The translations under genes and the position numbers were made by a program. The notes under the pieces are model-generated. The model ran no database searches. It had not been told where the DNA came from and saw nothing but the letters and a program-made list of their open reading frames with translations. A stretch of 63,723 nt of DNA, the filler included, from Folioceros fuciformis (lineage: Eukaryota), in NCBI GenBank assembly GCA_049999805.1. It is 23 parts of 23 records of this genome, joined end to end, with 100 filler letters (N's around TTAATTAATTAA, not from the genome) between each part and the next. Parts side by side here need not be neighbours in the genome. Positions count along the whole stretch, not along the records: positions 1 to 5,523 come from JBNGIO010002752.1; 22 more parts are not named here. The stretch is one strand, 5' to 3'. This document shows positions 1 through 58,853 of the stretch, piece after piece (within the stretch, counting starts at the first letter, position 1; each line of letters starts with the position of its first letter).

Positions 1-37
1 TAGAAATTACAAAACAACACACATGTTGGCCTTATGA

Positions 38-718
38 ATGGCCAACCGGTTGGAAGGACATCAATGGCATCAAGGCGCGCAAGCTGCAAGGAACATCATT
101 GTTGATCAACTTAATCAACATGTGGCTGAATGGATTGCAAGGAATCAGCATCAGCCAGTGCTTGCGTTGGAAGTAAGGGAATCCTACAATACCTTAATTG
201 AAGTGATATTCCCTGACCAGCACCACTTGATTATAGCCCTTCCACCTCGTAACCCTGATAATCTCCCAGAAGTGCGCGTACAGAGAGCTTTTGATGGAAA
301 TGGTCATCATAGAGGCTTTCTAACAACACACGTTGCACCTGCCACAAGTGTCACTCAATTAGTCAATAGAATTGAGGCACATCAAGAGCACATAGATACA
401 CGTTTCAGCAGTATTTTGAGTCAAGTCTCTGCAACTAGTATAGATGTAAGAGACTTGCAAGAACAGATAGGGCATTTGGACTTTAAACTTCTTACCTTGT
501 TAAAGCCACAATTACTTGCTAACCCAGCACACAGGGGAGTAGCCTGTAAACACACTAAGAAAACAAGTAAGAAGCATATGTTTGGTGTCCCAAACTCTTG
601 CCCTTCCTGCTTAGTGTATGCATTCAATAAGTGGGAGATTAGAAACCAAAGAGTAGCAAACAGAGTTAGAGAACAAGAGTTTGCTATCAGACCTGCTAAT
701 GCTGTAAACATACTCTGA
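38..718 (+). CDS. Extra ORF (ORF0) upstream of copia gag; coiled-coil-like segment and C-x9-H-x7-C-x2-C motif; unknown function
   Basis: Intact 226-aa ORF ending 113 nt before the gag ATG (832); homologs in the same position at 12979-13698 and 10695-11365. Confidence 0.8.
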   Translation: MANRLEGHQWHQGAQAARNIIVDQLNQHVAEWIARNQHQPVLALEVRESYNTLIEVIFPDQHHLIIALPPRNPDNLPEVRVQRAFDGNGHHRGFLTTHVAPATSVTQLVNRIEAHQEHIDTRFSSILSQVSATSIDVRDLQEQIGHLDFKLLTLLKPQLLANPAHRGVACKHTKKTSKKHMFGVPNSCPSCLVYAFNKWEIRNQRVANRVREQEFAIRPANAVNIL

Positions 719-831
719 CTCTGCTGACCTGATAGCATTTAATTGAAGTCTCAAAGGTTGAACCCCTGCAACAGCCATTATAGAATCTTAGTATATTGGG
801 AGTAGCTAACCCAACATACAAAAGAGGAAAA

Positions 832-3800
832 ATGGCAACCACAGCACCAGACCCCTCTACTAGTCTAGGTGGGGAAGGGTTCAAAGAAAAAGATAGGTTT
901 GGAGGGCAGGATTACGACATATGGGTAATCCGAATGAAAGGGGCCCTACAAAACAAGAAGTTGTGGAAGGTGGTCAATGGGGATGAACCAGCCCCAGCGG
1001 CACCTGCAAATCCAGCACAACCTACTAATGCTGAGAGAAGAGCACAAGAAGCATGGGACTCAAAGGATGAAGCCGCCATGTTTCTAATCAGAAGTGGTCT
1101 TACCTCTGAAATGCTAAGACAGACTTCAGGATGCATAACCTCAGCAGAAATCTGGACGAGACTTCAAGACCTATATTCAGGCAGCAATCAAACAAGTCAG
1201 ATGACAGCAATGAGAAATTTGCAACTAAACAAGTCAGATGACAGCAATGAGAAATTTGCAACTATGTAAAATGAGAGAAGGAGACTCAATTGAAAAACAC
1301 CTTGGATACTTCAGAACACTTGTGTCCAAGCTAGAGAGTGCTTCAAATGATATTATAAAGGATGACATGCTTATATTATATTTCCTGATATCCTTACCAG
1401 ATTCCTGGTCACACTTTGTGACATCTTTTAATGCTTCCAAGCTCCAAACTAAAAAACTAGCAAAGGCTTCAGGTGTTACCCTACCAGAGACAAGCTTTGC
1501 TGAGTTAGTGGGAGCCTTATTACAAGAAGAAGCAAGCAGATCACATGGTAGACGATCTGGTAAGCAGCAAGCCCTCTTCACATCAAATAGAGGACGTGGA
1601 GGAGGAAGACCCTTTAACAAGGGTGGTGGTAGTACCTCAAGAGGTGGTGGTTCTCAAGCACGAGGAACCAACCAGAAGAAGCCAAAAAGAACAGGAAACT
1701 GCAATTGGTGTAAATTACCTGGTCACTGGGAGCGTGAGTGTAGGAAAAAGCAAGCTGGTGTTCCTCGCAAGGAGGGTTCGACCAGCGCTGAAACTCATGT
1801 GGTTGTGAAGAAACAGCCAACACCCTCAGCTCTTACAGTCGGTACTACAGTTTTTGCAACAAGTTCTTTCTTGTATCCAGCCAGCCTGTCAGCAAATACC
1901 AAGAGTAAGCCTGTGTTAGATTGGTATCTAGACACAGGGGCAACAGCCCACATTTGCTTTGACAGAGGTTCATTTCAGACATACAAAATTTACAATGATC
2001 AGTATGTATACCTAGGTGATGATAGATCCCTAGTGTCTCCAGGTCGCGGCTCAATAGACCTGCCAGTTCCATCAGGACATGTGTTAACACTGCATGATGT
2101 TTACTTTGTTCCTGACATGACACGTAACCTAATTTCAGTTAGGAAGTTGAATTCAGACAACCACTGTCACATTCTGTTCACACAAACAGAATGTCAAGTA
2201 CTAGATGCTTTTAATCATAGCAGAATACTTGCCTATGGGTCCTCAGATAGAGACTTGTTTCGTCTCCACACAGACAGAAGTGTACCAGCATCATATTTGA
2301 CACAAGATGCAACTGCTGTATCTGCAAAACAGATAGAAAAATCTATGTTATGGCATAGGAGATTAGGTCATCCACATTCAGCAAAACTTCAGAAGCTTGC
2401 TGTAAGCAATCTTTACCAGGATGGTCCTATAGGGCAGTTGGCATCACTCCCATTGTGTGAGTCTTGTGTTCTTTCAAAGAGACATTAGGCAGCCTTTAAG
2501 AACAAGGCCCCACATAGAGCCTCTGAAGTTCTTGAGCTTGTACACACAAATTTGTGTGGTCCTCTTTCCCAGCCGTCAATAGGAGGGGGAAAATACTTCC
2601 TGACCTTCACTGATGATAAAACCAGGTTTGTTACAACCTACATTGTTAAACAGAAGAGTGAGTGTTTCAGTCACTTCAGACATTATATCAAATATGCTGA
2701 AAGATGGACCGGAAGGCAACTCAAAATCTTGAGATCAGATAATGGGGGAGAGTTCATTTCTGATGAATTCCAATCTTACTGTGCATCTCAGGGAATAGGA
2801 CGCCAGCTGACAGTGGTGTATACACCTCAGCAAAATGGTGTTGCTGAACGTGAAAACCTAAGCGTGCAAGAGATGACATCGTCATTATTACATCAAGCCC
2901 AGTTACCATTGCCATACTGGGCAGAAGCTTTAATGACTGCAACTTACCTGAAGAATAGGTTGCCTACTTCTTCTGTTGAAGGCTAGACTCCTTTTAAAGC
3001 TTTCACAGGGCGCAAGCCTTCTATTCTCCATCTGCGCACATTTGGCTGTGTTGCATATGCCTTTATACCTAAGAAAAAGAGGAAGAAGCTGCAAGACAAG
3101 GCCAAAAAGCTATTAATGCTAGGCTATACAGAGGGCATTAAAGCCTACAAACTGTATGATGTTCCCAAAAACAAAGTTGTTTACGCCAGAAGTGTTACCT
3201 TTGATGAAGGCCGCACTTGGGTTTCAGTGGGAGCTTCCCAAGATGTTGGTGTTGCTTCCCTTGATGATGATGTTTCATTCGATCAGTTTGAACATGGAAC
3301 ACAGGTTGTCCCCTTGGAGGACATTGCTCCTGCAGGAGGGGAAGATCCAGCCGCTGATTTTGAAGTTGTTGATGTTGATGACCTTGCGGTGGCAGAACCT
3401 GCACCTGTCAATGAACCAAAACATCAGCAGCAGCAGGGCATACAGGACCAATATCCTCCTGCACAACCTGCTCCTGATCTAATTGACCTTGCAAACTTAC
3501 CTGCTGATTTAGATAACCATGATGCAGCCCCTGACCCAGCTGCAGATCAGCCTGATGAGCCCGTTGCAGAGCCTCGGCGTTATCCTACTCGCCATAGGCA
3601 GCCTCCTGATTTTTACCAAGCTCCGGACTTCAGGACTGCTTCTTCTCATGTCGCTGTCCATGCTGACACTCCATCTCTTGATCCCATCGAGCCTCAATCA
3701 TATGAGGAGGCCTTAAGCAGACCTGATCATAAGGAGAGGGAGAAGGCAATCCAGTCAGAATATGATTCACTGATTGAAAACGGTACATGGGAATTAACAG

Positions 3801-5282
3801 ATCTACCTCCTGGCCGGAAGCTGGTTACCTGCAAGTGGGTCTTCAAGCTGAAGGTGAAGGCTGATGGTACCTTTGATAGGTACAAGGCCCGTCTAGTTGC
3901 AAGGGGCTTCTCACAGATTCCTGGAGTTGATTTCCTTGAAACCTTTTCTCCAGTTGTGAAGCTGTCCACCCTCAGGATCACCCTTGCAATATCCACATAC
4001 TACAATTATGAACTGCAGATGTATGACGTTAAGACAGCCTTCTTGTATGGAAAGCTGGATATTGAAATCTACATGCAGCAACCACCTGGTTATGTGGTGA
4101 AAGGAAAAGAACATCAAGCTTGCAAACTCATTAAGTGCATTTATGGCTTGAAACAGTCAGCCATGAAATGGAATGCAGCCCTAGAAACAGAGTTGCTAGA
4201 ACTAGGGTTTATTAAAAGCCAAGCTGACAGCTGCCTCTACATTTACCTCAAAGGGACTGTCACTTGCTATCTGGCTGTCTATGTTGATGACTTGATTCTG
4301 TCAAGTAACAGCCAAGAGTTCATAGTTAGTATCACTGATGTACTAGCTACGAAATTCAAGATGAATTGCCTAGGACCCCTACAAAGCTGCTTAGGGATCC
4401 ATGCGCAGAGGAACAGGAAGACACGGGTGATGACACTTACACAACCTCATTACCTCTTAGAGTGTGCAGAGCAATTAGGGCTCAAGGAAGCCAAACCTGT
4501 ATCCACACCCATGCCTTTCGGTCAGAAGCTCAGCAAGCTCATGTCTCCTACAACTGAAGAGGAAAAGGAGCAAATGAGGGGAGTCCCTTACAGGCAGGGT
4601 GTAGGGAAACTTATCTATGCTAGCAATACAACGAGATTGGAAGTGGCATACACTACTAGTGTGCTCTCGCAGTTCCTTGAAAACCCCGGAAAAGAACACT
4701 GGACGAACCTGAAGCGTGCCTTCCGTTATTTGAAGGGCACTGCCAAGATTGGATTAGCATACAAGTATCAAAATGGCAAGCAACTGGATTTGGAGGTCTT
4801 TACCGATTCAGACTATGCTGGAGATGTGGACAGTAGAAAATCAGTCTCTGGCTACATAATTTCAGTTGCTGGTGGTCCCGTGTGTTGGTCCAGCAAAAAA
4901 GCAGCCAACGGTGGCTCTGTCTTCTACTGAAGCGGAGTATCGTGTCTTGACAGCAGCTGCGAAAGAGATAGTGTGGTGTAAGTTATTGTTCAAAGAGCTA
5001 GGTATCCAGATACCTAGTTGCACAACAATTCACACTGACAATCAGGGTTCGATGGCCTTAGCCAAAAATCCAGTGTTCCATGCACGAACAAAGCATGTTG
5101 AAGTGGAGTACCACTACATTAGGGGACTGGTGACAGAAGGGAAGATTAATTTAAAATATGTTCCGACTCAAGACAACCCGGCGGACATACTTACAAAGTC
5201 TTTGAGCAGAGATGCTCACCACAGACACATGCAACGTCTGGGCATGGGAGAGGCAGAAGCCCTCCTGGACAGTTCTGACTAA
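832..5282 (+). mobile_element. Ty1/copia gag-pol (GAG-PR-INT-RT-RNaseH), near complete, disrupted
   Basis: FKEKDRFGGQDYDIW gag N-terminus; CNWCKLPGHWEREC knuckle; WYLDTGAT protease; LWHRRLGH; LRSDNGGEF/YTPQQNGVAER integrase; YKARLVARGF and [24 protein letters not shown] RNase H. Lesions: 37-bp duplication, stops at 2486 and 2984, extra A at 4895-4900. Confidence 0.97.
1190..1263 (+). repeat. 37-bp perfect tandem duplication frameshifting gag
   Basis: AAACAAGTCAGATGACAGCAATGAGAAATTTGCAACT x2 (ATGs at 1201 and 1238). Confidence 0.95.
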
Positions 5283-10369: not shown

Positions 10370-10540
10370 CTAAACCCCATCATTCGCACCAACAGAAGTG
10401 ATTCATTTCCTGTTGCTATCTTCCATAGCTCCTTACTTTGTAAGGCTCCTTTCATACGCATGACCCAGATGTCATAGTCAGTCCCCCCAAATCTATCTTT
10501 CTCCTTAAAAATATCACCAACTACAGTAGTGGTGTGCCAT
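10370..10540 (-). mobile_element. Copia gag N-terminus (truncated)
   Basis: Reverse strand reads FKEKDRFGG.DYDIWVMRMKGALQSKELWK, homologous to gag at 832. Confidence 0.85.
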
Positions 10541-10694
10541 TTATTAGAATGTAGTAATTCTATCCTAACTGTTAGGAGAAATGGCTGTATGCAGCTTTGT
10601 AGCCTATCCAGACAAGGTACAAACTGAAGAGAAAGACTGGGAAGAGGTAAGATGCTACTGTTGCATCTTAGATAAACTGCAGGAGCAGCCCTAT

Positions 10695-11365
10695 CTACAA
10701 GGGGTGAGCAAATCTACCAACTTGAGGTAAATTGGCCTGTTGATTTGCTAATCTATTTTCTATCCTTTGATGTCTAATCTCCCATCTGTTAAATGCATAA
10801 ACAGAGCATGAAGGACAGGAATTTGGAGCGTCAAAAGTGTGTTGCTTATAATTCTTGTTAGCACGTTTGCAAGCAACACCTCTGAGTGCAGGATTTGTTA
10901 GCAAAATGGGCTTAAGCAAGGTAAGCAACTTGAAGTCCAAATGTCCTATACGTTCCTTCAAATCTTGCAAGTCAACACTGACTTCAGCTATCTTGTGACG
11001 AATGCTCTGGAAACGCTCGTCAACATGCTGTTGAAGTGTTTCTATTCTTGCATTTAATTGTGACACACTAACATGTGGTGATGTGCGTGTTGTCAGGAAA
11101 CCCCTAGGGTTACCGTTTACAATAGGTGGAAGATTAATTTGATTCCTGGGTGGTGGAGGAAGCAACAAATGGCGCTGTTGTGGGAAGATAGCCTCAAGCA
11201 GATTGTTGAAGGAATCTCTCACAAGCCGGGATTGTTCAGGCTGGTCTTGTGTTTGAAGAATCCAATCCAGGGTTTGATGGTGAAGTGATTCTGCAAAAGT
11301 CAGCCTGCCCTCTTGAATTCGTTGTCCTCTATGGGCATTCCTCTATTGAATGCGCTCAGCAGAGC
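10695..11365 (-). pseudogene. Diverged ORF0 homolog upstream of copia gag
   Basis: IGHLDFKLLTLLKP, RGVACK, PNSCPSC, VYAFN.WEIR shared with 38-718; the 5' part has a stop and a frameshift. Confidence 0.85.
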
Positions 11366-11631: not shown

Positions 11632-12168
11632 ATGGACAGCACGGTAGTTCTGGGTGTGGAGGTTGCGTTGGTACTAGTGGTGCTGGTTGTGGCGTGGCGA
11701 GGATGGAGGTCCAAAGGGGTTCTAGGAACTCAGAGGAAAGTATGTGCCCAAAGGGTCCAAGGAGCTGCCGGGGAGCATGGGGCGGCCCCCCCTGGGAGAG
11801 ACCATGGAGGTGCTGGGCCACTTCAAGGACGGCGCCGTGGAGCGATTCAGGTTGACGAGGTTCCGAAAGCATGGCAACATGTTCAAGTCGCACATTTTCA
11901 GGAATCCGTACGTGTTTTTCTATGGCGTGGAGGCGGCAAAGCTACTAAGCACTAGCAAGAACAAGCTAGTGCAGGCGTACCAGTTCTTGCCGACCATCAA
12001 GCTGCTGGGTGAGGAGTTGTTGCTCAATCTGCACGGCTCCAAGCACAAGCAGTATAGGAGGATGTTCATTGAGACATTCATGGGAGAGGGCATATGGAAG
12101 TACCTCCTGGTGGTGGAGCAGATTGCTCTTGAGATGCTCAACGGCTAGAAAATGGGGGAAGTTCCCAA
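11632..12168 (+). pseudogene. Cytochrome P450 (CYP85-clan-like) N-terminal coding fragment, frameshifted and truncated
   Basis: N-terminal TM helix (VVLGVEVALVLVVLVVAW); LPGSMGRPPLGET proline hinge; HGNMFKSHIF; LHGSKHKQYRR; frameshift near 11740 and stop at 12146. Confidence 0.85.
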
Positions 12169-12681: not shown

Positions 12682-12978
12682 NNNNNNNNNNNNNNNNNNN
12701 NNNNNNNNNNNNNNNNNNNNNNNNNTTAATTAATTAANNNNNNNNNNNNNNNNNNNNNNNNNNNNNNNNNNNNNNNNNNNNCTATAGTGTTTTTAGATAC
12801 AATTTTTGGAACATAAGGCAGTAATCCTTGCGCATTTTCCTGATTTGCTGTCACAGCAAATTCAGAAGAAATGCTCAAGGACAACTACCTAATCTGCAAG
12901 AAAAGTATTAGAAATATAATTATAGAAAAGGAAAAAGTTTAAAGAAAGCATTTAACAACATAGAACTTGGTCTAATGA

Positions 12979-13698
12979 ATGGCCAATCGCCTCGATGGGC
13001 GCCAGTGGCAGCCTCGCCCTGCAGAGAGAATTCAACATCAGAATCTCAACAAGAGGCAAGGAGCACAGGCAGCAATAGCAAAGCATCTTCATCCACAAGT
13101 TACTGAATGGATTGCTCATGCACAAAATCAACTTGTGCTTGCTTTGGATGTAAGAGAATCTTTTAATACCTTGATTGAAGTTCTCTTCCCAGATCAGCGC
13201 CATCTGGTACTGGCTCTTCCACCTAGGAACCCAGACAATCTCCCAGAGGTGCGTGTTCAGAGAGTCTTTGATGGTAATGGCGTACAAAGAGGTTTTCTAA
13301 CAACACACGTTGCACCTGCTACAAGTGTATCTCAATTAGTAAATAGAATTGAGGCACATCAAGCATATGTTGATACACGTTTCAACAATATTCTACGCAA
13401 TGTTTCTGCAACTAGTGTGGATGTAAGAGACTTGCAAGAACAGATAGGGCATCTAGATTTTAAACTTCTTACCTTGTTGAAACCTGCTTTACTTGCTAAT
13501 CCAGCACATAGGGGAGTAGCCTGTAAGCATGTTAAGAAAACAAGTAAGAAACATTTGTTTGGTGTTCCAAACTTTTGCCCTTCCTACTCAGTGTATGCAT
13601 TTAATAAATGGGAGATTAGAAACCAAAGAATAGCAAATAGAATTAGAGAACAAGGGTCTGTAGAAGACAGACCTGCTAATGCTGTCAACATTCTTTGA
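12979..13698 (+). CDS. ORF0 copy 2 upstream of copia gag
   Basis: 239-aa intact ORF colinear with 38-718; ends 113 nt before the gag ATG at 13812. Confidence 0.8.
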   Translation: MANRLDGRQWQPRPAERIQHQNLNKRQGAQAAIAKHLHPQVTEWIAHAQNQLVLALDVRESFNTLIEVLFPDQRHLVLALPPRNPDNLPEVRVQRVFDGNGVQRGFLTTHVAPATSVSQLVNRIEAHQAYVDTRFNNILRNVSATSVDVRDLQEQIGHLDFKLLTLLKPALLANPAHRGVACKHVKKTSKKHLFGVPNFCPSYSVYAFNKWEIRNQRIANRIREQGSVEDRPANAVNIL

Positions 13699-13811
13699 CC
13701 TTGCTGACCTGATAGCATGAGTCTGAAGCTCTGAGTCTTAAAGCCCTCCAACAGCCACTTTAGAATCTTAGTGTCTTGGGAGTAGCTAACCCAAAGCACA
13801 AAAGATGAAAA

Positions 13812-14367
13812 ATGGCTGATGCCTCATCAAGTTTGGGTGGGGAAGGGTTTAAGGAGAAAGACAGATTTGGTGGGCAAGATTACGACATATGGGTAATCCG
13901 CATGAAAGGAGCCTTACAGAACAAGAAACTCTGGAAGGTGGTTGCTGGGGAAGAGAATTCCCTAGTAGTCTCAACTCCGCCCACAGCAGTTGAAAGAAAA
14001 TTGCAGGATGCATGGGATTCAAAAGACGAAGCCGCCATGTTTCTGATTCGGAGCGGTCTTACCTCAGAAATGCTGAGACATACGTAAGGATGTTCAACTT
14101 CAGCAGAAATCTAGTCTAGCTTCAAGACCTGTATGCAGGCAACAATCACTCAAGTCGGTTGACAGCCTTGCACTGCAACTTTGCAAGATGAGAGATGGTG
14201 AATCAATAGAGAAACATCTTGGACATTTCAGAGCACTTGTTTCAAAACTGGAAAGTGCTTCAAATGAGACTATCAAGGATGATATGCTTGCCCTTTACTT
14301 CCTCTTGTCACTCCCGGAGTCCTGGTCACATTTTGTGACCTCCTTCAATGCTTCTAGACTCCAAACT
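13812..14367 (+). mobile_element. Copia gag 5' part, disrupted (same family as 832-5282)
   Basis: FKEKDRFGGQDYDIWVIRMKGALQNKKLWKVV; LPESWSHFVTSFNAS. Confidence 0.92.
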
Positions 14368-24530: not shown

Positions 24531-25998
24531 CGGGAAGCTTGTCTCTGTAGAGATCCTGCATGGACATGGCAAGAAGCTTGGCAGAGTTAAGGTGCCCAAG
24601 TCTACAATGCCATAAAAAGGCTTGCTCGGAGGGCGAGTGCCTTGCAGCCACTGCATCCTTAGTCGAGTCCACCACAGAAACACTGGGGGAAGACACAAGG
24701 GTGCCTGAAAAGATATAGAGATCGCTGTGAAGACAACCTCTAGCAACCACCTTGTGTGGCTGAGAGGAGCGATAGAGTAGACAAGCGGATTTGTCAAACT
24801 CCAATTTATAAAAACCATCGTGCACAAGATGACGAATGGAGATAAGGTTCTTGGCCATTCGTGGAACATACAATACATCCTGCAGCATAAGGATAGAACC
24901 ATCGTCTAATTTGAAGGTTACCGTCCCTATGCCATGAATGGCAAGACCGGAATCATCTCCTAGGAGCACGTACCGTGGAGGATCAGAAGAACCCTCATAG
25001 GTAGTAAACATATGCTTGGAACTGCAAATGTGAGCAGTAGCCGCAGAGTCAAGGAGCCACGATGTCTTGAGTGCCGAGGTAACAAGGCACACAGTAAGAG
25101 CAATCTCTGATTTAGACTGATTTTTGGCCTTAGGAGCTACTACCATATTGGCAGACTTGGGCTCTCTCTTAGCCTCACCAGCTTGCTTCTTCCTGCACTC
25201 CCTCTCCCAATGACCCGGAATTAGACACCAATTACAAGTACCTTGGCGCTTCTGGGTCGTGGAGGTAGAGGCAGAAGAAGTGGATTTGGGATGACTATAA
25301 GAAGGCATCCGTTTTGTGGTATTGTCTCTTTTCTTAGGCTGATGTTGAAACAGGCCTCGGGTAACAAACATCACGCGTTCACCACCATGCTTAGATGTGC
25401 CAGAATTGTAGCGAGAAGCCTCCTCTTGCAGAAGTGCTCCAGCAATCTCGGACACAGTGAGAGTGGAGTGACCACCAGTCGCCACTGCTCGCTGAGAGTT
25501 AGGGACCGACTGGTTATGTGAAGAGACAAAGGATTGATAGCTAGCCGGAAGACTAGCCAACAATTGTACAGCAGCATCAAACTCAGACATAGTAGTGCCT
25601 AGTGCAGCCAATTGTGCCCGGAGGTAATGCAATCGACTCACATGGTGAGCAATACTATCGCCTGATTGCATACGAAGAGTATAAAACTCCTGCCGCACAG
25701 TGACCAGGGTCATCACATTGGTGGACTGATAAATGTCATTTATCTGCTTCCATGCTTCTGCTGCTGTAGTTGCACCATCGGTATGGTGTAACGTAGTCTC
25801 GTCAAGGCCAGATATCAACATATGCATGGCTTGACGATCAAGTTTTAACCAAGCTTCGACAGCCGACTGGGGTGCCAAAGGCTTGGAGGAAGTTCCTTCC
25901 ACGAGTGGAAGAAGATCGCGCGTATTCAGCGCCGCCTTCATTCGCCGAGACCAAACTTCATACTTGGTCCCATTGAACCTATCTTTTTCTTTGAAGTC
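24531..25998 (-). mobile_element. Ty1/copia gag-protease, open frame
   Basis: FKEKDRFNG, CNWCLIPGHWEREC, WLLDSAAT, LWHCRLGH. Confidence 0.95.
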
Positions 25999-26098: not shown

Positions 26099-27761
26099 GG
26101 GGGAGCAGGTAGTGGTGGAGTGATTCCTCAGCCACTCCCGCCTGTGCCAGTGATTCCACAACCTTCTTACTCAGTTGAATTTAAGGAGCGAGATCGCTTT
26201 AATGGCATGAAGTTCGAAGGTTGGAAGGTGCGCATGACAGCTGCCCTGCAAGCGAGACACGTTTGGGGAGTTGTTAGCGGCACGCTTAAGGAACCTGCAC
26301 AGTCTGCCACACAAGAAGAGAAGGACTAGTGGGCAAACCTTAATTATGTTGCTCGTGCCGTCATCATAAGCGGGCTGGACGAGACTCTCCTTGCGGACGT
26401 TGCCTTCTTAACCAAAGCTGAAGACATCTGGATCCTGCTCACACAGACATATGAAGCTAAGAACATTCTTACCATGTGTGCTGTACGTGGTGAACTCTTC
26501 TCTTTGCGGCTTAAGGAAGGCGATAAGGTGTCCCCATTTGTCATTCGTTTTCGTCAACTGCGGGCTCAACTCATCAACCTCGGCTCACAATTCCCGGAGC
26601 TTGATGCTGTTAGCCAACTTCTGACCAGCTTGCCTCCTAGCTATCAGACTTTTGTCTCCAGCTATGGAGCAACTGTTCGCACTGCCGATGCAGCTAGAGC
26701 AGCCGGCCAGCCAACCAACATCAACCTGGCTGATGTGATTGGCGCCCTGCTACAAGAGGAACAAAGCCGCAGCCACTTTACTGTTAGTAGTGGTCGAACC
26801 AAGGCTGATAAAGTTCTCTATTCTCAAGGAAAGAATATCAGAAGGAAGCCTACCTCCGGTGCAGGTGCAGGCTCTTCTAAATCCACCTCTGTAAAGAGAT
26901 CTGGCGCCTGTAACTGGTGTGGTGTACAGGGCCACTGGGAACGGGAGTGTAGAAAAAAGAAATCAGGGGAGCCACACAGAGCTGAGAAGTCCTCCAGACA
27001 AGCTGAAGCTCATGTGGCATCCAAGGATCGACTTTCCTCGTCGACTTCCACCAAACCGCCTGTTGTCATGACGGTTTGCCTTGCATCTTCTGCTCACCCT
27101 TCCCCACAGAGTTGGTATATCGATTCAGGGGCCACTTCTCACATCTGTAACGATAAGTCAATGCTCAGTCATTTTCGGTCTTCTCAAACTGCTGACGAAG
27201 TGCTTATGGGAGATGAGCTTACACGTACAGGTTTGAAGATAGCAGGTTCTGGCTCCTGTCGTTTCCGTCTCCGGGACGGTTCAGTCCTTCACCTGGACAA
27301 TGTTCTTTACGTCCCTCATATGGCTAAGCACTTGTTGTCCGTTAGCCAGCTTATGTCCCTACGCACATATGATTTGCTCTTCTCTTCTTTCCCCTGTGAG
27401 CTTAAGACGAGAGGGGAGGGAGGTCAGGTTGTTGCACTGGACATATAGTACATGACTTGTATCAACTTGATTTAACAGTCATACCTCCAGATTCTGCTCA
27501 TGTTGCCCAGTCGTCGCAAGCTGCTCAGGCCAGTCTTTGGCACGCCCGCCTAGGTCATGCCAACCGTGACAAGCTGATAAAGATGTCTAATCTGACCTGC
27601 TACAGAGAGCCTCTGCCAAAATGTTTTAAGGACCTTCCTTTGTGTGCTGCCTGCGTTATAGCAAAACAAAAGGAGAGACCCTTTCCAACATCCAAGGCAC
27701 ATCGAGCTTCACAGATTCTGGAACTGGTACATGCAGATATCTCTGGAAAGGTCCACATACC
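26099..27761 (+). mobile_element. Ty1/copia gag-protease-start of integrase
   Basis: FKERDRFNG, CNWCGVQGHWEREC, WYIDSGAT, LWHARLGH, LELVHADI; two in-frame TAG stops. Confidence 0.95.
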
Positions 27762-47525: not shown

Positions 47526-47537
47526 GCTCTGATACCA
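47526..47537 (-). promoter_or_regulatory. Primer binding site (tRNA-iMet) directly after an LTR end
   Basis: Minus strand ...TTGACA TGGTATCAGAGC; the LTR extends to higher coordinates from 47538. Confidence 0.9.
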
Positions 47538-56460: not shown

Positions 56461-58853
56461 ATGGATCTATCACCAAACCTAATGGGCCTTCACCTGCCCA
56501 CGACTCTTGGTTGAAACAAGACAAGCTAGCTATGCATATCCTTAGATATCCAGATACAATGCCGGCACTTCGAAGCATGGTGGTGAACGAGTTATGTTCG
56601 TTAGCAAAGGCCGTCAACGCCACCAGCCCCACCAGCGATGTCGTCCTCCTCCACCTGATAGACGGCCCTTCACTGCGCCTCCTCCGGCTCCTGGTCGTGG
56701 ACCTTCGGCATCCAAACATGCTAGTTCCGGCCGCAAGCTCGGTACCTGCATCTGGTGTCAAATTCTAGGCTACTGGGAGCCTGATTGCCGCAAGAAGAAA
56801 GCTGGCGAGCCTCGACGTCCATCCAAGACTGCCAATACGGCCTCGACCTCCAAGCAGAAACAAGCCGGCATTGCCCTCACAATCTACTTGGTAGCTTTTG
56901 AATATAAGACCTCTTGGCTATTTGATTCCGCTGCCTCCGAGCATATATGCTGCCATCGTCATATGTTTTCTAATTATCTCCTTGCCGACGATCAACGTTT
57001 TGTTCTTTTCGGCGATGGCTCTGGGCTTATTATTGCGGGCATTGGTACTTTTACTTTTACTTTTACTCTTGAAGATGGTTCTGTGCTTCTTCTAAGTGAT
57101 GTGCTGCATGTTCCGCAAATGGTGAAGAATCGTATTTCCGTTCGACGCTTGGTGAAGGACGGTACATTCCGACTAGAGTTTGAAAGAGGCGATTGCCTCC
57201 TCACAAGATCTGTTGCTCCTGGTCGCGTGGTTGCCAGAGGTTGTCCACGGCATGATCTCTATGTCTTCTCCGCCGTACCAGTGCTCATGGCTTCCTCGAC
57301 CCCAGCTTCCGCAATGGCAACTGCGGTCGATAGAGGGAGTTCCCGCAAAGGTGACTCCATATTATGGCATTCTCGGCTTGGACATATTAATCATGCTAAG
57401 CTTTTCGAGATGTCTAGGCAGGATTTATTTAGGGATAAGCTACCTCACTTTTCATAGACTCCACTATCATGTGACCCTTGTATATATGCTAAACAACGTA
57501 GCTTCCCCTATCCTACTCTCCTTGCCCGTCGGGCTACTCAGCCCCTGTAGTTGGTCCATGTTGATCTTTGTGGTCGACTTCCCGTCCTTTCACTTGGCGG
57601 CGCACTGCATTTTATGACTATTGTTGATGACTATAGTCGCTATACCTTTGCTATTCCGCTCAAGTTGAAGAGTGACTCCTTCGGCTCCTTTGCTCCTTTT
57701 GTCACTATGGCCGAGCTGCAAACCGGTTGCAAGCTTCGGTGTATTAGATCTGACAATGCAGGGGAATCAAAAAACCGGCAATTTAAGGATTTCTGTCTTA
57801 AGAGGGGGATTCTCCGTCAATTTACGGTTCCCTACACTTCGCAGCAGAATGGGGTTGCTAGAAAGGCCAACGGCGATCTTCACAAGGTTTTTGAAGAGCG
57901 GAGCAAGCGAGAGACTTGAAGAAAGATTTGTAGAACAAGTAAAACAATTACTGTCAAAAGATGTCTTATATACAAAATTGTATGTAACCTATGTAACTCT
58001 TCATTTAAGTATAAGTTAGATATTCTAAGCGACGTGGTTACTAGTCAACGCTAACCGGGTTACGAGGTTCAACAGATCTGCTCGCCATGGCCTGCGCTAT
58101 GCTAGCCTATGCTCAGCTCCCCAAACCCTTCTGGGCCGAAGCGATTAATACTGCAGCGTATCTCCGCAACAGGGTACTTTCCAAGTTCGTTCCTGACCAG
58201 ACACCCTTTGAGTCTTGGCATGGATATAAGCCTCTTATTACTCATCTTCGGATTTTCGGCTGCCCTGCCTATGCTAATATTCCTTCTTAGCTTCGCGACA
58301 AGCTTTTTGCTTGTGCTCGCAAGCTGGTATTTGTTGGCTATGGTGAGGACTGTAAGGCTTATAAACTGGTTGACTTGGATACCCATGCTATTGTATATGC
58401 TCGCACTGTCACTTTTGATGAGGCTCAGTTGGCATCTGCTCATTCTGAGTCCATGGATTCTACTTCGGCTCCTTCAGACGACATTGCTTCTTCCGACCCA
58501 AGTGACCTTATGCCTGAGTTTTTAACTCAACCCTCTGTTTTCCCGGACTTTGGTCCTGCACTCACTGCTCTATCCTTGGCCTCTTCACCTCAAGCAGCAC
58601 CTATCCCTATTGTTCCTGCTCGAGAGGGGGAAGATGAACAGGCCATTGTTGATCCTTATGAAAACAAAGAAGACTTTGGTGCTCTTAATCCACAAGACCC
58701 AGAGACTGTTCCTGCTCCACCATCTCCTATAATACTTGATCCAGCCCCTAAACGAAGATATCCTTTGCGTCATCGTCAACCAAGACACCTCTGGAATGAG
58801 ATCCCCTTTGATTTAGAGTTCAATCAAGCTGGCTACACCACCACTGCTACAGG
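56461..58853 (+). mobile_element. Degenerate Ty1/copia gag-PR-INT
   Basis: CIWCQILGYWEPDC, WLFDSAAS, LWHSRLGH, VHVDLCG, IRSDNAGE, FWAEAINTAAYLRNR; about 225 bp of foreign DNA at 57860-58085. Confidence 0.92.

Follow-up and report, generated by a model that had tools for sequence, protein, structure and literature searches.

An open reading frame that stands directly in front of a copia gag gene, on the same strand, raises the question of whether it is a gene in its own right, what its product might do for the element and how gag can be translated behind it. The stretch of Folioceros fuciformis DNA analysed here (the window, 63,723 bases) consists of 23 short contigs joined by spacers of the form N44-TTAATTAATTAA-N44, and fragments of retrotransposons are abundant across it. 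The first copy of the reading frame, referred to below as ORF0, lies on the first contig (1–5523).

An additional reading frame in front of a copia gag

Copy 1 of ORF0 and the parts of the element adjoining it are arranged as follows:

38 to 718, plus strand: ORF0 copy 1, intact, 226 codons and a stop codon, about 25.7 kDa, pI 9.4
34 to 105, plus strand: short upstream reading frame, out of frame with ORF0, its ATG 4 nt 5′ of the ORF0 ATG (ATGAATGG); the arrangement is also present in copy 2
719 to 831, plus strand: spacer of 113 nt between ORF0 and gag, stops in all three frames, 77% identical to that of copy 2 with conserved blocks
832 to 5282, plus strand: defective Ty1/copia gag-PR-INT-RT-RH body with the Pfam order DUF4219, Retrotran_gag_2, Pol_BBD, gag_pre-integrs, rve, SH3_retrovirus, RVT_2

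Copies 1 and 2 both retain the ORF0 ATG, with a stop codon immediately 5′ of it. The original prediction of a 226-residue sense frame ending 113 nt before a copia gag ATG (at 832) holds. In GC content, GC3 and base composition, ORF0 falls inside the range spanned by the other genes of the element, and no tandem repeats were detected by TRF in positions 1–900. The spacer of copy 1 has no significant RNA structure (z −0.9). A motif close to ACAGCCA followed by TAGAAT is found in the spacer of all three copies described below (760–800; 13740–13780; 10560–10600 on the minus strand), 40–70 nt 5′ of the gag ATG; it might act in cis, for instance as a splice acceptor, an internal start site or a packaging signal.

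The body of copy 1 has the domain order of Ty1/copia elements (Pseudoviridae), with the integrase before the reverse transcriptase and with gag and RT of copia type. Its RH part has no Pfam match, yet aligns inside related polyproteins. The polyprotein had been described as complete, which is correct for the order of its domains but not for its integrity, the frame being broken in four places: gag carries a perfect 37-nt tandem duplication (1190–1264, 2.0 copies) that shifts the frame and is not found in copy 2, in-frame stops occur at 2486–2488 and 2984–2986, and the frame changes near 4860–4930. The usual CCHC knuckle is present in the element's own gag. The wording of this nucleocapsid knuckle (CNWC..GHWERECRKK) is common to the ORF0-bearing family and to other copia fragments of the window, at 24531–25998 (minus strand), 26099–27761 (plus strand) and 56461–58853 (plus strand), whose contigs begin inside gag.

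Homologues of ORF0 had been claimed to occupy the same place on two other contigs, and both were found. A tblastn search of the window with ORF0 returned only three matches, namely itself, 12979–13695 on the plus strand (74% over 242 columns) and 11360–10737 on the minus strand (51% over 215), the next having an E value of 2.5. A profile built from the three copies and run against the 1,422 stop-to-stop frames of the window recovered the same three only (next E value 0.42). These two additional copies include:

12979 to 13698, plus strand: ORF0 copy 2, intact, 239 codons, 80% identical to copy 1 in alignment, Tyr in place of the last Cys
13699 to 14367, plus strand: spacer of copy 2 (113 nt) and start of gag (ATG at 13812); the gag contains stops and runs off the contig
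10695 to 11363, minus strand: remnant of ORF0 copy 3, 51% identical to copy 1, N-terminus beyond the contig end, in-frame stop at 11345–11343 and then open for 215 codons
10405 to 10694, minus strand: spacer of copy 3 (154 nt) and short gag remnant; the gag-like residues downstream of the gag ATG (10540–10538) are in a different frame from it, and similarity to gag stops near 10405

A copia gag start thus follows ORF0 in each of the three copies, after 113, 113 and 154 nt respectively. There is no ATG after the in-frame stop of copy 3. An imperfect inverted repeat (12813–12893, about 80% over 83 nt) is located 90–160 nt 5′ of the start of ORF0 in copy 2, and could form structure in the leader or belong to an LTR. 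Host-gene-like pieces are few in the window; one of them, a fragment of an open reading frame at 11777–12148 (plus strand), appears to resemble the N-terminal part of a cytochrome P450.

Three public runs contain the copy 1 stretch: two are DNA-like and come from one sample, and the third, X3, is RNA-like by our guess. A C>T variant at position 464 in a DNA run converts codon 143 of ORF0 into a stop. The five single-letter differences listed within ORF0 comprise this stop, three silent changes and one residue change.

Selection on ORF0 and its separateness from gag

ORF0 is a real protein-coding gene. The comparison of copies 1 and 2 gives a dN/dS of 0.19 (Nei-Gojobori, 226 codons, bootstrap 0.12–0.28), or 0.15 with a protein-guided alignment, whereas reading the same DNA in the remaining two frames yields 1.03 and 1.30. 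For the N-terminus of gag in these two copies the value is 0.11, and for the next stretch of gag 0.055. Differences at codon positions 1, 2 and 3 amount to 14%, 12% and 35% in ORF0 and to 17%, 13% and 41% in gag. The neighbouring segments have diverged about equally, with nucleotide identities of 80% for ORF0, 77% for the spacer and 77–78% for gag, at a synonymous distance of approximately 0.75. ORF0 is represented by three sequences from a single genome, and silent sites are saturated in comparisons with copy 3. ORF0 had been proposed to be conserved; since the in-frame ratio is low and those of the other frames are about 1, selection preserved the ORF0 frame as the family diversified. Each of the three copies is defective, and a DNA run has the variant stop at codon 143; selection can therefore be assigned to the ancestors of these copies only. 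A present-day function of these three insertions is unlikely.

The frame of gag differs from that of ORF0, the spacers of copies 1 and 2 contain stops in all three frames, and fusion of the two genes was seen in none of the three copies, in agreement with the view that ORF0 is separate from gag. A profile search of 120 related copia polyproteins revealed no ORF0-like part (best E value 0.018 within that small set), and none of 967 candidates for longer proteins containing ORF0 scored. The related polyproteins start where the gag of copy 1 starts. That ORF0 is an N-terminal extension of gag was rejected because the frames differ, stops intervene and the gag start is aligned with the starts of related polyproteins. 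When compared with the element's own gag using hhalign, ORF0 gave a probability of 0.1–0.2%.

The ORF0 protein and the search for relatives

Two features stand out in the protein:

347 to 514, plus strand: heptad-repeat segment of coiled-coil type, ORF0 residues 104–159, eight unbroken heptads in a single register
545 to 610, plus strand: Cys/His cluster C170-x9-H180-x7-C188-x2-C191, holding all three Cys of copy 1 within the basic C-terminal region

In the 56-residue heptad segment, 81–88% of the a and d positions are occupied by L, I, V, M or F, a value reached by 1, 3 and 0 of 20,000 shuffles for copies 1, 2 and 3 respectively. ORF0 has the long unbroken hydrophobic a/d pattern by which coiled coils are recognised; Pfam matches to coiled-coil families were weak noise only. 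Both the heptad helix and the C-x9-H-x7-C-x2-C cluster were part of the original prediction. The heptads are present in all three copies, and the cluster in copies 1 and 3, where it contains their only three Cys, but not in copy 2, in which a Tyr replaces the last Cys. The C-terminal 61 residues (166–226) have a pI of 10.4. The cluster and this basic tail suggest that the protein may bind zinc and nucleic acid. No membrane segment was detected in the three copies, the highest Kyte-Doolittle mean over 19 residues being 0.83–1.24. AF2 models are mostly helical and of low confidence, with a mean pLDDT of 47.9 for the whole protein and 56.2 for residues 92–226. We also considered whether the cluster is a retroviral CCHC zinc knuckle (PF00098) and rejected this: its spacing is C-x9-H-x7-C-x2-C and not C-x2-C-x4-H-x4-C, and none of the three copies gave a match to this family in Pfam at E values up to 10.

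The protein had been presented as unrecognised, and no known relative was found in the collections searched, which included protein representatives, Pfam, PDB sequences, the ESM Atlas and metagenome and viral contigs. A phmmer search of 1,835,955,588 protein representatives returned 0 matches, and none of 283 candidates for homologous proteins of near full length scored. Pfam gave nothing above noise (best CorA, E value 0.026, 14 bits against a cut-off of 27), with no family appearing in more than one of the three copies; the best E value among PDB sequences, using the ORF0 profile, was 0.15. The ESM Atlas yielded nothing usable for the whole protein or for residues 95–226, and no relative was confirmed among the 246 pattern matches in metagenome contigs and the 38 in viral contigs. 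The RT of copy 1 reaches its best identity, 48%, with unnamed records; named entries from plants, oomycetes and animals mostly show 32–42% identity, with one at 48%. So distant an RT indicates that the host group is poorly sampled, and the absence of ORF0 relatives is therefore partly a sampling effect.

The composition and layout of ORF0 suggest that its product is probably an oligomeric accessory protein associated with nucleic acid or with the particle. The protein of about 26 kDa would be composed of a helical N-terminal part, the 56-residue heptad segment and a basic C-terminal part with the Cys cluster. The heptads would provide self-association, and the tail, which probably binds metal, would contact nucleic acid or the Gag particle. 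ORF0 would then act as an accessory factor in the element's own replication cycle, with a layout like that of a virion-associated protein or a chaperone of the ORF1p type. Gag-pol would be translated from a second RNA, either spliced or internally started, or else by reinitiation or internal entry. Such a route would be required by the leading position of ORF0 and its many AUGs.

Transcripts, gag translation and the place of ORF0

Transcript evidence comes from X3. Its 11 aligned records on contig 1 are all at least 99% alike, and it accounts for 14 of the 15 joints listed, with 7 further joints outside the list. Among these 14, 13 have the form CT..AC on the plus strand and so read GT..AG on the minus; the skipped lengths are 90–238 nt, and three of these joints are located within ORF0. 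The minus-strand joints of X3 against contig 1, among the joints listed, are:

83>193, 336>494, 542>692, 1001>1102, 1168>1396, 1479>1718 and 1884>2011, minus strand
2321>2417, 2635>2778, 2855>2946, 3088>3199, 3402>3499 and 3720>3827, minus strand: the remaining joints

Their donors are GTAAG, GTAAC or GTAT and their acceptors CAG or TAG. U makes up 34.6% of the skipped pieces and 27.0% of those retained, and GC 40.8% and 47.4% respectively; of ten homologous splice dinucleotides, copy 2 keeps seven. The joined antisense form includes no stop-free stretch longer than 151 codons. Unjoined pieces of X3, which may belong to either strand, span 517–721 and 692–947, and no sense-strand joint occurs among the joints listed. 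The X3 joints show antisense transcription with splicing at cryptic sites and not expression of ORF0; together they have the look of a non-coding antisense RNA from the retrotransposon, spliced many times.

The question of how gag is translated behind ORF0, already posed in the original prediction, is justified. On contig 1 there are twelve ATGs 5′ of the gag ATG, nine of them located after the start of ORF0. Given these many ATGs and the conserved out-of-frame ATG, leaky scanning to gag is unlikely, and a simple bicistronic reading would be costly for gag with nine ATGs between the two starts. In plant copia elements, alternative splicing and premature termination are described as yielding a gag-only RNA (PMC5580714). 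This route acts downstream of gag and therefore does not answer the question of gag translation behind ORF0.

The ends of the element lie largely beyond the contigs: 37 nt precede ORF0 in copy 1 and 197 nt in copy 2, and 241 nt follow pol on contig 1. None of the copies shows an LTR, PBS or PPT on these contigs, there is no repeat between contig ends, and a tRNA-Met PBS motif, whether full or half, is absent from the 37 nt and 197 nt upstream of ORF0 in copies 1 and 2. The window contains five matches to the tRNA-iMet PBS motif against 5.7 expected, no half-tRNA motif near the element and no tRNA genes. The sole tRNA-iMet match near the element (682–693) was rejected as a PBS; it has two mismatches, lies inside ORF0 and is not conserved in the other two copies. 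The tRNA-iMet primer-binding motif is matched exactly only once in the window, at 47526–47537 (minus strand), in another element on a 10-kb contig (42843–52911).

Our preferred explanation, to which we give a fair measure of confidence, is that ORF0 is a genuine lineage-specific extra gene of one Ty1/copia family, located in sense orientation directly 5′ of gag and encoding an accessory protein. Its place in the internal region could be disputed, since neither an LTR end nor a PBS is visible upstream of ORF0 or in the spacer and since the homology of copies 1 and 2 reaches the very first base of contig 1. ORF0 might accordingly lie within a long 5′ LTR, or belong to a composite or neighbouring repeat regularly found upstream of this copia family. 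Two observations run counter to this: the 241 nt after pol are unlike the DNA that precedes ORF0 in copy 2, although only short ends can be compared, and ORF0, spacer and gag diverge in step. We regard this arrangement as rather unlikely. It is also unlikely, and we would put it a little lower in general terms, that ORF0 is part of a host gene acquired by transduction and of no service to the element. LTR elements are known to capture host sequence (PMC7264820), and host proteins are probably absent from the libraries searched, so that the missing host match counts for little. The same review describes transduced pieces as usually present in one or a few copies; the composition of ORF0 matches that of the element's own genes. 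Two element lineages are here separated by a synonymous distance of about 0.75, and a dN/dS of 0.19 across it means that the reading frame was preserved as the family diversified.

Two further readings keep the gene within the element and assign it a different role. Being first on any full-length RNA, ORF0 might serve mainly as a long upstream reading frame that throttles gag-pol translation, the peptide itself being irrelevant, and the out-of-frame ATG kept 4 nt upstream in copies 1 and 2, with nine more ATGs before gag, would suit such a role. Selection acts at the amino-acid level (0.19 in frame against about 1 in the other two frames) and the heptads and Cys cluster persist down to 51% identity, which makes this reading very improbable. 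An anti-silencing function, put forward in the original prediction, was drawn from analogy and found no support here. VANC21 of VANDAL21 is an anti-silencing factor predicted to form a coiled-coil dimer (preprint 10.1101/2024.04.02.587720), and the proteins of the Tekay 5′ extra ORFs have been compared with dsRNA-binding proteins (PMC11728184). Pfam, phmmer and PDB sequence searches revealed no sequence similarity of ORF0 to any suppressor, and we consider such a role quite improbable.

ORF0 among the extra genes of retroelements

Extra ORFs are frequent and heterogeneous in plant LTR elements, and the 3′ env-like ORF of SIRE is singled out as a lineage-wide feature of copia elements (PMC6317226; PMC7264820). 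Sense ORFs at the 5′ side are described for the gypsy lineages Ogre, Tekay and Retrosat2 (PMC7264820, PMC6317226, PMC11728184, PMC4093653, PMC2533021 and PMC3485330). Neumann et al. 2019 applied a minimum of 250 codons and report such eORFs for 582 of the 5,410 copia elements surveyed, falling into 45 unrelated groups (PMC6317226); with so many elements concerned, some copia 5′ forward cases may be included. ORF0 has the characteristics of an eORF-5′F: it precedes the polyprotein in the same orientation, is unfused in all three copies and is not derived from tandem repeats. At 226 and 239 codons it is shorter than 250 codons, a working threshold rather than a biological criterion, and would for that reason have been missed in the survey (PMC6317226). 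A text search of the literature, setting aside the group-by-group listing of this survey, returned no description of a copia 5′ ORF.

Retrosat2/FRetro3 ORF0 from rice and the Tekay 5′ ORFs resemble the present ORF0 in several respects (PMC3485330, PMC4093653 and PMC11728184). They are separate sense frames before gag-pol, orphan and conserved within their families, and their proteins include helices together with basic or nuclear-localisation-like stretches. In contrast to ORF0, they belong to gypsy elements and encode larger proteins (about 400 residues in sunflower), and no likeness to them surfaced in the database searches with ORF0. Ogre ORF1 (Ty3/gypsy, Tat lineage) is likewise a 5′ extra ORF before gag; a plant mobile domain (pfam10536) is present in 57% of Ogre elements (PMC6317226), whereas ORF0 has no Pfam family. 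The env-like ORF of SIRE (Sirevirus) shares with ORF0 the status of an extra copia ORF and differs in lying 3′ of pol and in typically having membrane segments, ORF0 being 5′ and having none. ORF0 was rejected as a frame of this env-like type on account of its position 5′ of gag and its 19-residue hydropathy maximum of 0.83–1.24.

The virion-associated protein of plant pararetroviruses and LINE-1 ORF1p are small proteins, encoded before the capsid or polymerase gene, in which an oligomerising coiled coil is followed by a basic nucleic-acid-binding part. Their likeness to ORF0 is one of layout alone, between different classes of element. The upstream ORFs of badna- and tungroviruses are nearly devoid of internal AUGs and in this are unlike ORF0, which has internal ATGs.

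ORF0 is a family-specific 5′ extra gene encoding an orphan protein with a coiled-coil segment and a Cys cluster, for which the sequence suggests a putative accessory function. It is possible, if doubtful, that it will prove to be the first characterised 5′ accessory gene of a copia element, specifying a coiled-coil metal-cluster protein that acts with Gag and RNA, as a chaperone or particle component or in countering silencing, and entailing a new route to copia gag-pol. If so, ORF0 would impose on gag-pol a mode of expression new for copia elements, by a second RNA that skips ORF0, by reinitiation after 226 codons or by internal ribosome entry. The value of the case is at present limited; the evidence comes from three defective copies in a fragmentary assembly. 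The extra genes of LTR retrotransposons are their least understood part, hardly any having a tested function, and those located 5′ are known mainly from gypsy elements. A short 5′ gene of a copia family, held under strong constraint, would offer a compact case in which to approach both the role of such a protein and the expression of gag-pol behind another reading frame, and in which to ask if small accessory genes form a class that escapes surveys set at 250 codons.
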